Source: a virus (lineage: Duplodnaviria; Caudoviricetes). From it: a DNA stretch of 64,000 bases. The stretch is taken from positions 96,001 through 160,000 of the IMG/VR virus record IMGVR_UViG_3300031088_000782; one strand, given 5' to 3'. The position numbers and the translations under genes are program-made. Under the pieces are notes generated by a model. It made no database searches, was not told where the DNA came from, and worked only from the letters and a program-made list of their open reading frames with translations. This document shows, in pieces, positions 49,134 through 62,800 of the stretch; the stretch's first letter is position 1, and each line of letters opens with the position of its first letter.

Positions 49134-49206
49134 TCCCCTGTAGCTCAATTGGCAGAGCATTCGGCTGTTAACCGGAGGGTTCTTGGTTCAAGTCCAAGTG
49201 GGGGAG
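49134..49206 (+). tRNA. trnN: tRNA-Asn(GTT)
   Basis: Cloverleaf; CT-GTT-AA; U1-A72, G73. Confidence 0.95.
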
Positions 49207-53209: not shown

Positions 53210-53282
53210 GCGAAAGTAACTCAATTGGTAGAGTTTCTGACTTCCAATCAGAATGTTGCGGGTTCAAGTCCCGTCTTTCGCT
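53210..53282 (+). tRNA. trnG: tRNA-Gly(TCC)
   Basis: CT-TCC-AA; U73. Confidence 0.95.
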
Positions 53283-53331
53283 CAAAAATTTCATAATAAT
53301 TAAAATATTTTTATAAAACTTTAAAAATGAG

Positions 53332-53404
53332 TTGACAACGAAATTTAGTTGTGTTAGTATTATATATATAAGCAACACAGCGGATTGAAAAGTTAATAGT
53401 GGAA
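53332..53404 (+). promoter_or_regulatory. sigma-A promoter + boxA-like leader
   Basis: TTGACA-17-TAGTAT; AACACAGCGGATTGAAAAGTTAATAGTGGAA at 53374-53404. Confidence 0.75.
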
Positions 53405-53410
53405 AATTTT

Positions 53411-53486
53411 AGGAATAATATGTTTTACTTTATATTTAAAAGTAAAGTATTAGGGTATATTTTAGGTTCGATTCCTATTATTCCTA
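53411..53486 (+). ncRNA. D-armless tRNA-like element
   Basis: AGGAATA/TATTCCT acceptor, T arm, one long central hairpin. Confidence 0.45.
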
Positions 53487-53493
53487 CGAGGAT

Positions 53494-53566
53494 CGAAAAG
53501 TCATGGGTTCGATTCCCATATAGTCCACATATTCATGGGCTATTGATGAAATGGTATCATATTTTG
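53494..53566 (+). ncRNA. circularly permuted tRNA-like RNA P1 (G3.U70, A73)
   Basis: CGAAA-AGTC-T arm-ATAGTCC-A-linker-GGGCTAT-D arm-TTTTG. Confidence 0.75.
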
Positions 53567-53628
53567 ACAGGACCGTGAAACTCGGCAAACTTAGTGAGAG
53601 GCTAAGGAAATAGATGCAAATTCTTTAT

Positions 53629-53703
53629 GGGGGTATGGCGCAATCTGGTTAGCGCATTTCGCTGATAACGAAAAGGTTCCTGGTTCAAATCCAGGTGCCC
53701 CTA
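53629..53703 (+). tRNA. trnI: tRNA-Ile(GAT)
   Basis: CT-GAT-AA. Confidence 0.93.
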
Positions 53704-53736
53704 CGAAACAAAGCTTCGCAACTTTGTTTAAATATT

Positions 53737-53998: not shown

Positions 53999-54168
53999 GG
54001 CTAAACACGGTACCATGTTTAGTTCAACCCATTGGTCTAGAACAATGGAAGATAGTTATTATTAGATAATTGATTTTAGAGATCTGGGTTCAAGTCCCGG
54101 TGGCTCCCGCATGGGGGTTATGGAATAATTGGGAAATTCGCTTCATGAAATATTTGATAATAATTATT
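53999..54168 (+). ncRNA. permuted tRNA-like RNA P3 (same family as P2)
   Basis: 5' GGCTAAA hairpin; T arm 54084-54100, acceptor closed by GCAT, D arm; about 17-bp flanking stem. Confidence 0.75.
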
Positions 54169-54347: not shown

Positions 54348-55421
54348 ATGAAAAGTGAAATTGATTTTTCTTGGCAAGATTTAAGTGATGAAGAATTTAT
54401 AAATCATTCTAAAAATTTTACTTCTAAAGAAAAATTTGCTCAATCCTATGGTTACAAGAAATTGAGCAAAAAACTCAATAAAAGATTTAAAAAACTTGGA
54501 ATTGATTATAAAAAGATTATTGAACCTATCTCAAAAGAAGAGTTTAAAAAGATTACTGAAGAATCGAAGTCTATTACAGAAGTGATAGATAAAATGATAG
54601 ATAATACTTCAAGCCGTAGAGCATACTATAATTTTGTTAAAAAATTGTCGAGAGATTATAATATTCCTTTGCCAAAATTTAATTACACTGAATCTGCGCG
54701 TAGGGCGTTTAAAACAGTAACGATTCCCGATGAAGAATATTTTGCTAAAAACACTCTTCGACAAGGACCAGCGACACGAAGACGTCTTATTAGAATGGGC
54801 TGGGAATATAAATGCTCTATCCCCGAATGTTTTCTTTCGCAAGATGTAGAAATTGTTGGAGAACAAGTTTTTTGGGTTGGACAATTATTAACCTTACAGG
54901 TAGATCATATTGATGGTGATCATTTAAATAATGAGTTGTCTAATTTGAGATTTCTTTGTCCAAATTGTCATTCAGCTTCTTCTACTTATGCCGGAAGAAA
55001 TAAAGTTTTCAACAATTCTTCTAAAAAGACAGAGAAAACTAATTCGTTAAATGGAAAGATAAAGTATAAGAAGAAGCCTGACAATCTTTGCGAATGTGGA
55101 ACAAAAATTTCAAGAAAAAGTAATTCTTGTATAAAATGCGAAGCTTCTAATAGAACAGGTGTATATAAGACAGATTATCCTCCACTTTCTGAAATGATTG
55201 CTAAAATTAAAGAATTAGGATATAGTGCTTATGCTAAGGAATTGGGTGTTTCTGATAATGGTATTCGGAAACATTTAAGAAGAAATAATATAAATCCTTT
55301 GCCTAAGAAAATTCATGTTTTTATTGTTAAAACTTGTATTGATTGTAATAATGAGATAAGTAACAAAACTGCTGTTCGTTGTCCTAAATGTGCTGTTGAT
55401 TTCAGGTATTATAGACAATGA
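54348..55421 (+). CDS. HNH homing endonuclease with C-terminal Zn fingers
   Basis: YKCSIPEC..LQVDHIDGDHLNNELSNLRFLCPNCHS; additional CxC/CxxC pairs. Confidence 0.88.
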   Translation: MKSEIDFSWQDLSDEEFINHSKNFTSKEKFAQSYGYKKLSKKLNKRFKKLGIDYKKIIEPISKEEFKKITEESKSITEVIDKMIDNTSSRRAYYNFVKKLSRDYNIPLPKFNYTESARRAFKTVTIPDEEYFAKNTLRQGPATRRRLIRMGWEYKCSIPECFLSQDVEIVGEQVFWVGQLLTLQVDHIDGDHLNNELSNLRFLCPNCHSASSTYAGRNKVFNNSSKKTEKTNSLNGKIKYKKKPDNLCECGTKISRKSNSCIKCEASNRTGVYKTDYPPLSEMIAKIKELGYSAYAKELGVSDNGIRKHLRRNNINPLPKKIHVFIVKTCIDCNNEISNKTAVRCPKCAVDFRYYRQ

Positions 55422-56964: not shown

Positions 56965-57038
56965 TACTGTGTAGTTTAATGGCAAAACACTAGGCTCTTA
57001 AAGCTTAGCATATAAGGTTCGAATCCTAATCACAGTTG
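56965..57038 (+). tRNA. degenerate tRNA with a 9-nt loop CTCTTAAAG
   Basis: Good D arm; CTAGG/CTTAG stem; mismatched T stem. Confidence 0.45.
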
Positions 57039-59450: not shown

Positions 59451-59519
59451 TTGACAAGTTTGAAAAAATTTGTTAAGATTGTCAAAGTAACACAGCGGAT
59501 TGAAAAATTAATAGTGGAA
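59451..59519 (+). promoter_or_regulatory. sigma-A promoter + boxA-like leader
   Basis: TTGACA-17-TAAGAT; 31-nt motif 30/31 identical to 53374. Confidence 0.75.
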
Positions 59520-61146: not shown

Positions 61147-61246
61147 AATAAGGATATTGAGTAGAGTTTACTTGTGGTAACGGTTCGATTCCGTTGTAAT
61201 AGTCTGGGTGGCTTTATCATAAATGGTATGAACATGAGTAATTTTG

Positions 61247-62645: not shown

Positions 62646-62793
62646 TTGACAATAATTATTAATTATGCTAAGATTAACTTGTTAAATCAAATTGAGGACT
62701 TATCAAGAAGATAACGAGATTATAGATTTGACAAGCGTTAAAAAATAGTTTATAATTAATAATATAAAGCGGTTTGGAAACTTAATAGTGGAA
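62646..62793 (+). promoter_or_regulatory. tandem P1/P2 promoters with a conserved spacer motif and boxA-like leader
   Basis: TTGACA-17-TAAGAT; TTGAGGACTT motif; TTGACA-17-TATAAT; GCGGTTTGGAAACTTAATAGTGGAA. Confidence 0.7.
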
Positions 62794-62800
62794 AATATAT

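Follow-up and report, generated by a model that had tools for sequence, protein, structure and literature searches.

A gap of 345 nt between tRNA-Gly (53210-53283) and tRNA-Ile (53629-53704) in a viral tRNA array holds a tRNA-like module, termed P1, the 3' half of which lies upstream of its 5' half. The question is whether this arrangement belongs to a functional RNA, and of what kind. In bacteria and in some phages, Ro60 is known to have inside-out tRNA mimics as its RNA partners. On comparison of sequences, P1 is given an even chance of being a selected, tRNA-derived mimic of YrlA-like layout, co-transcribed with the neighboring tRNAs. The new features of P1 would be the combination of a YrlA-like mimic devoid of the Ro60 handle with an alanine-type acceptor end that is predicted to be competent for RNase P.

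The window (the whole stretch of 64,000 nt that was analyzed) is contained in an IMG/VR virus record of 309,534 bp with a G+C content of 35%. ARAGORN identified 66 tRNA genes and one tmRNA in this record, all on the + strand. The tRNA genes are concentrated from window position 49134 onward, where they are interspersed with homing-endonuclease genes of the HNH and GIY-YIG types.

Anatomy and transcription unit of P1

P1 spans 53494-53566 (+). Its segments, listed here as they follow one another, place the 3' strands of the anticodon-like and acceptor stems before the corresponding 5' strands:

53494-53527 (+), 3' half: anticodon-like stem 3' strand, 4-nt variable loop, T arm, acceptor 3' strand and A73
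53494-98 (+), anticodon-like stem 3' strand CGAAA
53499-502 (+), variable loop AGTC
53503-19 (+), T arm ATGGG/TTCGATT/CCCAT
53520-26 (+), acceptor 3' strand ATAGTCC
53527 (+), A73
53528-36 (+), 9-nt linker CATATTCAT, which closes the acceptor stem and places U at -1 before G1
53537-53566 (+), 5' half: acceptor 5' strand, U8, D arm with A14, G18, G19 and A21, and anticodon-like stem 5' strand
53537-43 (+), acceptor 5' strand GGGCTAT, followed by TG and giving the pairs G1-C72, G2-C71 and G3:U70
53546-60 (+), D arm ATGA/AATGGTA/TCAT, followed by A
53562-66 (+), anticodon-like stem 5' strand TTTTG

The original prediction had proposed this permuted order, the pairing of all four stems, the presence of G3:U70 and A73, and the lack of an anticodon loop. 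The order was confirmed letter by letter, and the stems (7 + 5 + 4 + 5) contain 21 standard pairs out of 21. Two of these are G:U, namely G3:U70 in the acceptor stem and one pair in the anticodon-like stem. Nearly all the nucleotides that support the tertiary structure of tRNAs are present (U8, A14, G18, G19, A21, U54, U55, C56, A58, and the pair G53-C61), and the 15-48 pair is A-C in the window. The acceptor stem consists of exactly 7 pairs stacked on the 5-bp T stem, with a 10-nt loop, U at position -1 and G at position +1. The sequence also bears out that no anticodon loop lies between the stem strands. The immunity to anticodon nucleases that had been deduced from this absence follows trivially from it, but it is of no use to an RNA that does not decode. 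When the two halves were rejoined in silico through an arbitrary 7-nt loop, ARAGORN recognized a canonical 71-nt cloverleaf. Both flanking words, CGAGGAT upstream (53487-53493) and ACAGGAC downstream (53567-53573), are shaped like 7-nt anticodon loops and contain AGGA. U33 is missing from both.

A strict permuted-tRNA descriptor yielded two matches over both strands of the 309 kb, P1 and its neighbor P2, both on the + strand of the tRNA array and separated by 330 nt. The same descriptor yielded 0.2 matches per dinucleotide-shuffled genome and 0.025 per shuffled array. Chance is not the explanation for the P1 pattern. The thermodynamic signal is weak, with fold z-scores of -1.0 (module) and -0.8 (entire spacer), so that the case for P1 rests on the tRNA pattern and on sequence comparison rather than on folding energy. 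In a competing fold of lower energy, the 5' flank GGATCGAA (53490-53497) is paired to TTCGATTC (53508-53515) in the T loop and stem, which would unmake the T arm. This fold is unsupported, the complementarity being broken in a diverged homologue from run X10, which is presented below.

The module is surrounded by the following features:

53332-53360 (+), sigma-70-type promoter: TTGACA, 17 nt, TAGTAT, with TG before the -10 hexamer and 10 of 12 consensus matches
53374-53404 (+), leader motif that recurs ahead of two other tRNA runs
53412-53485 (+), degenerate tRNA-like element: GGAATAA/TTATTCC acceptor (perfect 7 bp), T arm, and one long hairpin replacing the D and anticodon arms
53486-53493 (+), 5' flank ACGAGGAT, between the degenerate element and P1
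53567-53589 (+), spacer 3' of P1: 23 nt, mostly single-stranded, beginning with ACAGGAC
53590-53606 (+), tail hairpin CTTAG/TGAGAGG/CTAAG: 5 bp, 7-nt loop, z = -3.1
53607-53628 (+), 3' trailer: 22 nt, up to the RNase P site of tRNA-Ile
53629-53704 (+), tRNA-Ile(GAT), the downstream boundary, which belongs to the same lineage-specific cassette

No terminator was found on the + strand between the promoter and position 54400. The leader matches 59489-59519 at 97% identity and 62768-62796 at 90%, and a tRNA starts 5-8 nt after each of these two copies. In the relative L061, a syntenic Logan contig with about 83% identity, the leader directly abuts a tRNA-Ile, which is different from that of the window. 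At the P1 locus, the spot that the tRNA occupies after the other leader copies is taken by the degenerate element. This element scores 15.8 bits with the Rfam tRNA model, for a cut-off of 29, and is not called by ARAGORN. It may serve only as a processing signal for RNase P and RNase Z.

Transcription would proceed from the promoter at 53332, within the tRNA operon. Cleavage by RNase Z at the upstream tRNA-like element and by RNase P at tRNA-Ile would then release an RNA of about 143 nt (53486-53628), the predicted length being set by these two cuts. P1 itself would fold into a T arm, an acceptor stem with its 10-nt loop, and a D arm, carried by a stem of 5-6 bp. The tail of this RNA had been likened to a P3/P4 segment of a group I intron. 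This likeness was not upheld, as three Rfam scans of the region returned no match to a group I model at E ≤ 10, and the tail instead contains a 5-bp hairpin.

Related modules and RNA families

Two further permuted modules are found 260-500 nt downstream of P1, and both are conserved in L061:

53824-53897 (+), P2, between tRNAs, with a long basal stem, z = -4.0
about 54077-54145 (+), P3, between tRNAs, with a long basal stem, z = -3.6

They have in common with P1 the permuted layout, the strand and the transcription unit. They differ from it by a shared 5' hairpin and by their long basal stems, neither of which is present in P1, and P1 has a longer acceptor loop. P2 clearly descends from a gene resembling tRNA-Gly(TCC), unlike P1. 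A search with the hairpin pattern of P2 and P3 matched 10 loci; since none of them had a tRNA, the matches were taken as chance.

The class of permuted tRNA mimics occurs in huge phages. The phage G004 (IMGVR_UViG_3300014208_000024, 372 kb) encodes a TROVE/Ro60 protein together with permuted modules inside tRNA arrays, which score 44.9, 36.7 and 30.8 bits with the YrlA model. At least three modules are present in this phage, 35-50 kb from the TROVE gene. They have 17-nt acceptor loops and the common 5' word GAGTTACTTCGCA, which reads GGGTTACTTCGCA in one copy. A covariance model was built from P2, P3, their L061 homologues and the three G004 modules, leaving out P1. A genome search with this model missed P1 at the first-look stage. 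A direct unfiltered search aligned P1 end to end at 32.0 bits, with 16 of the 16 modeled pairs being standard, a score that is also reached by junctions of ordinary adjacent tRNAs and that alone can therefore not place P1 with P2, P3 and the G004 modules.

P1 reaches 17.4 bits as a module, and 20.2 bits end to end, with the Rfam YrlA model (RF02553). Its scores of 18-21 bits with cyano_tmRNA and 14.6 bits with tmRNA_permuted are obtained over the T arm and acceptor. The gathering cut-offs of the three models are 69, 70 and 47 bits, respectively. All Rfam matches to P1 are thus far below the cut-offs and cover the tRNA-like part only. The resemblance to YrlA and to two-piece tmRNA that had been put forward holds for the layout and for these weak matches, but does not extend to scores near the cut-offs. 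P1 is a standard member of no known family.

YrlA and P1 have the same succession of variable loop, T arm, closed acceptor-like stem and D arm, with conserved tRNA tertiary nucleotides. The hallmarks of YrlA are a GNCGAAN0-1G motif near the 5' end, which is the proposed contact with Ro60, and a same-strand Ro60 gene no more than about 4 kb away (Chen et al. 2014, PMC4201824). Binding by Ro60/Rsr and the modifications pseudouridine 55 and dihydrouridine are further criteria of the family. P1 has only an approximation of the motif, ATCGAAAAG at 53492-53500, which reads CTAGAAAAT in the X10 homologue. For the end-to-end helix below the tRNA-like domain of YrlA, no clear counterpart was found in P1: the stem formed by the ends comprises only CGAAA/TTTTG and one U-A pair, further pairings in the computed folds being short and inconsistent. 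P1 differs also by its alanine-type acceptor stem and by an additional conserved 3' hairpin. RNAs of the YrlA type have also been described in phages that carry tRNA arrays, in agreement with the modules of G004. P1 can be described as a stripped-down YrlA-like head: the Ro60 handle is missing from it, and the record contains no Ro60 gene.

A search for genes of Ro60/TROVE, RtcB and SmpB had been suggested with the original prediction; it was negative for all three across the 309-kb record. No gene for a DUF2828 protein, an AlaRS or a FemAB-type transferase was found in the record either. The phage does encode a CCA-adding enzyme and an Rnl2-type RNA ligase. An identical copy of the HNH protein encoded at 54348-55421 of the window is found on a 681,645-bp ENA metagenome contig (ERZ27247443 k141_1824489). 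The 'provirus' of the 309-kb record may thus be only a piece of something far longer, be it a phage of at least 680 kb or a cellular genome, so that the absence of a gene from the record is weak evidence. A search for TROVE proteins returned thousands of matches, and none of the 120 listed came from the 681-kb contig, which makes it uninformative regarding this contig.

Homologues and origin

The P1 stretch is nearly unchanged in Logan contigs from four runs of other studies. The X2 sequence is identical over 53378-53575, there are 2-4 differences in X3 and X4, and part of the stretch is contained in X23 and X24. No RNA run was listed among the public runs that contain this stretch. These near-identical contigs are from close strains and say little about selection.

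More divergence is provided by the X10 homologue, a 1,715-nt contig with a depth much above that of the phage-like contigs of the same run. It aligns to 53503-53590 with 15 differences (about 83% identity), has a loose end before 53503, and shows the tail hairpin in the 30 letters after the aligned part. Two of the differences, 53548 G>A and 53558 C>T, turn the D-stem pair 12-23 from G-C into A-U. A third, 53546 A>G, is one-sided and leaves the pair 10-25 as G:U, still paired. The tail hairpin of the homologue, CCTGG/TTGAAGG/CCGGG, retains all 5 pairs despite 5 substitutions in the stem; in two of the pairs both partners are replaced, and a third has become G:U. Position 48 is U, which restores the canonical A15-U48. 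The 5' word CGAGGATC of the flank is kept, and no difference falls in the acceptor strands and linker (53521-53542) among those listed. The compensatory changes argue for a functional RNA, the comparative evidence consisting of one X10 contig, seen in parts. The pattern of paired changes, kept flank and kept linker is hard to square with free decay. Both anticodon-loop-like flanks are apparently conserved in this homologue, and the adjacent anticodon-stem strand is altered.

P1 is not present in all relatives. L061 carries, in this order, tRNA-Ser, tRNA-Gly, the promoter, the leader, tRNA-Ile, the P2 homologue, tRNA-Leu, the P3 homologue, tRNA-Pro and an HNH gene. Its different tRNA-Ile replaces the region 53408-53698 of the window, that is, the degenerate tRNA, P1, the tail and tRNA-Ile. 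A phage-like X10 contig likewise skips 53402-53698. These two absences indicate a lineage-specific, dispensable cassette, in contrast to the conserved modules P2 and P3. In L061, the interval from tRNA-Gly to the promoter (L061:623-860) is about 180 bases longer than in the window, and the extra bases include two T-arm-like motifs inside a stem of roughly 14 bp (AATATTGTTGAA repeats). They may be another tRNA-derived structured RNA that is absent from the window.

Searches for additional homologues were negative. The exact word formed by the T arm and acceptor of P1 was absent from viral contigs, and a 21-mer across the linker was absent from genome and metagenome contigs. An 18-mer had two chance matches in viral contigs, inside coding sequence and with no tRNAs nearby. 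A 25-mer from the X10 tail was not found in viral, genome or metagenome contigs, and blastn against GenBank phages retrieved no homologue of P1. P1 has no paralogue in its own genome, where the leader motif alone is repeated. Relatives of the phage were also sought through its proteins: the DUF4379 protein led to distant huge phages only, the SNF2 helicase and a 212-aa ORF to none, and the RecG-like protein to GenBank phages with matches at 34% identity or less only.

No close parent tRNA of P1 was found in the genome, especially for the 5' half. The 3' half resembles those of tRNA-Ile(GAT) by the pattern CGAAAAG..TCATG..GTTC. Tandem near-identical tRNAs occur in related arrays, and the sequence of P1 would fit a history in which a tRNA was duplicated in tandem and the outer halves were then lost. 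Such a route has been proposed for the permuted tRNA genes of algae. That 21 of 21 pairs are intact in the absence of a close parent argues against free decay of P1.

Acceptor end and competing readings

Among the 66 tRNAs, only the two tRNA-Ala genes have G3:U70 within a well-paired acceptor stem. P1 has the whole AlaRS identity set formed by G3:U70, G1-C72, G2-C71 and A73. The minor tRNA-Ala elements G4-C69 and G20 are missing, with C4-G69 and U20 in their place. AlaRS charges minihelices that contain G3:U70. The U at position -1 is shared with 52 of the 66 tRNAs, so that P1 follows the norm of the array in this respect. P3 also contains G1-C72, G2-C71 and G3:U70, in a stem that is extended to 8-9 pairs and closed by a tetraloop. 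As this closed stem is not suggestive of cleavage, the alanine mark of P1 may be inherited from a tRNA-Ala ancestor rather than used.

P1 thus carries, besides the alanine identity marks, all the sequence features needed for cutting by RNase P. The YrlA of M. smegmatis was the only one among those tested to be cut by RNase P and to receive CCA in vivo; its 7-bp stem was singled out as the reason for the cleavage, and its possible aminoacylation was raised by the authors (PMC4201824). The combination in P1 of a 7-bp acceptor on a 5-bp T stem with U at -1, G at +1 and A73 predicts a similar nicking of the loop. RNase P and RNase Z would nick the acceptor loop of P1, and the CCA-adding enzyme would tail the new end. 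Nicking into two pieces is a reasonable prediction, and charging by AlaRS is possible on paper. That P1 is cut, CCA-tailed and charged by the host AlaRS to become an alanyl-tRNA look-alike unusable by the ribosome is an unlikely outcome. Such a molecule, if it existed, could act on proteins that recognize nothing but the acceptor and T-arm half of alanyl-tRNA, as their decoy, sink or donor.

Several other readings have to be weighed against that of a selected mimic. P1 could be functionless evolutionary debris from a tandem duplication of an Ile-like tRNA, its outer halves having been lost and its pairing persisting by descent. This is a serious possibility, if less probable than a selected mimic. 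Such a history would be in line with the absence of P1 from L061 and from one X10 contig, with the degenerate tRNA directly upstream, and with flanks (CGAGGAT/ACAGGAC) that are those expected of duplicated anticodon loops. The tandem near-identical tRNAs that are common in related arrays offer raw material for an accidental permutation, and the weak fold z-score and the tRNA-Ile-like 3' half point the same way. What debris does not readily account for is the full set of 21 standard pairs without a close parent in the genome, as well as the compensatory substitutions by which the X10 homologue, diverged by about 17-25%, maintains its D stem and its tail hairpin; the flanks and linker of this homologue are conserved too. 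It is improbable that P1, once its linker is removed, works in charged form as a two-piece, CCA-tailed, anticodon-less tRNA bearing alanine, as the original prediction would have it. The identity set, otherwise restricted to the tRNA-Ala of the genome, the 7-bp stem with U at -1, the CCA-adding enzyme of the phage, and the precedent of M. smegmatis YrlA for RNase P cutting and CCA addition (PMC4201824) all speak for it. They are countered by a record without AlaRS, SmpB or FemAB-type transferase, and by the G3:U70 stem of P3, which is closed by a tetraloop and gives no hint of cleavage.

The two remaining readings would assign P1 to systems that are already described. In Cyanidioschyzon merolae, some green algae and archaea, permuted tRNA genes give rise to decoding tRNAs by way of a circular intermediate and a cut at a bulge-helix-bulge. 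Like P1, genes of this type have the 3' half first, acceptor ends joined by a short linker, and a break at the anticodon loop, and tandem duplication is the likely origin of both. A transcript of P1 that is circularized or ligated and then opened into a decoding tRNA is nevertheless very improbable. The rejoined halves do rebuild the complete cloverleaf of a permuted gene, with a loop that is supplied artificially, the phage has an Rnl2-type ligase, and AGGA is present in both flanks. However, P1 belongs to a bacterial virus and has no usable anticodon loop: its termini fail to rebuild a 7-nt loop with U33 and an anticodon, neither flank having U33. A conserved tail of 62 nt follows the 5' half, the X10 homologue changes the anticodon-stem strand and keeps the flanks, the record is devoid of RtcB, and bacteria are not known to have a bulge-helix-bulge system. 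Equally little credence is given to P1 as the tRNA-like domain of a compact two-piece tmRNA with its tag in the tail. Two-piece tmRNAs have the same arrangement of T arm, acceptor 3' strand, intervening loop and acceptor 5' strand, with G3:U70 and A73, and their loop is removed during processing. The weak matches to cyano_tmRNA and tmRNA_permuted agree with this, as does a frame that follows P1 (GCA AAC TTA GTG AGA GGC TAA), which encodes ANLVRG before a stop and the start of which resembles the tmRNA tag of the phage itself. The scores are however far under the cut-offs, P1 has a full D arm, no pseudoknot was seen, and the usual hydrophobic end of the tag is missing. The frame is not conserved, the stop being replaced by CGG in the X10 homologue, and the phage already has an ordinary one-piece tmRNA. 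The tmRNA reading fails on the D arm, the lost stop and this existing tmRNA.

As a selected mimic, P1 would have as its likely role the engagement of tRNA-binding proteins. Should P1 prove to be expressed and processed, a tRNA-like head would be seen to work on its own, and P1 would be a small and simple substrate for finding the proteins that are engaged by such mimics during infection. If P1 is a mere by-product of tRNA duplication, it shows an intermediate step toward permuted modules such as P2 and P3.

A weaker candidate for a fourth permuted module lies at 61168-61241, in the interval between tRNA-Val and tRNA-Phe. Its T arm is good and 6 of 7 acceptor pairs are present, with a poor D arm lacking GG. 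The continuation of the tRNA region (L060, G000 160001-180000) encodes a TilS-like PP-loop protein, the CCA-adding enzyme (G000 168131-169567) and a TadA-like deaminase. An ADP-ribosyltransferase, a Sir2-family protein and a NERD nuclease are encoded there as well, and the tmRNA and more tRNAs are scattered among these genes. Among the ordinary tRNAs of the window, one with the anticodon TTA was called at 56966-57037 by both ARAGORN and Rfam, with a low score of 31 bits; this tRNA would read the TAA stop codon.
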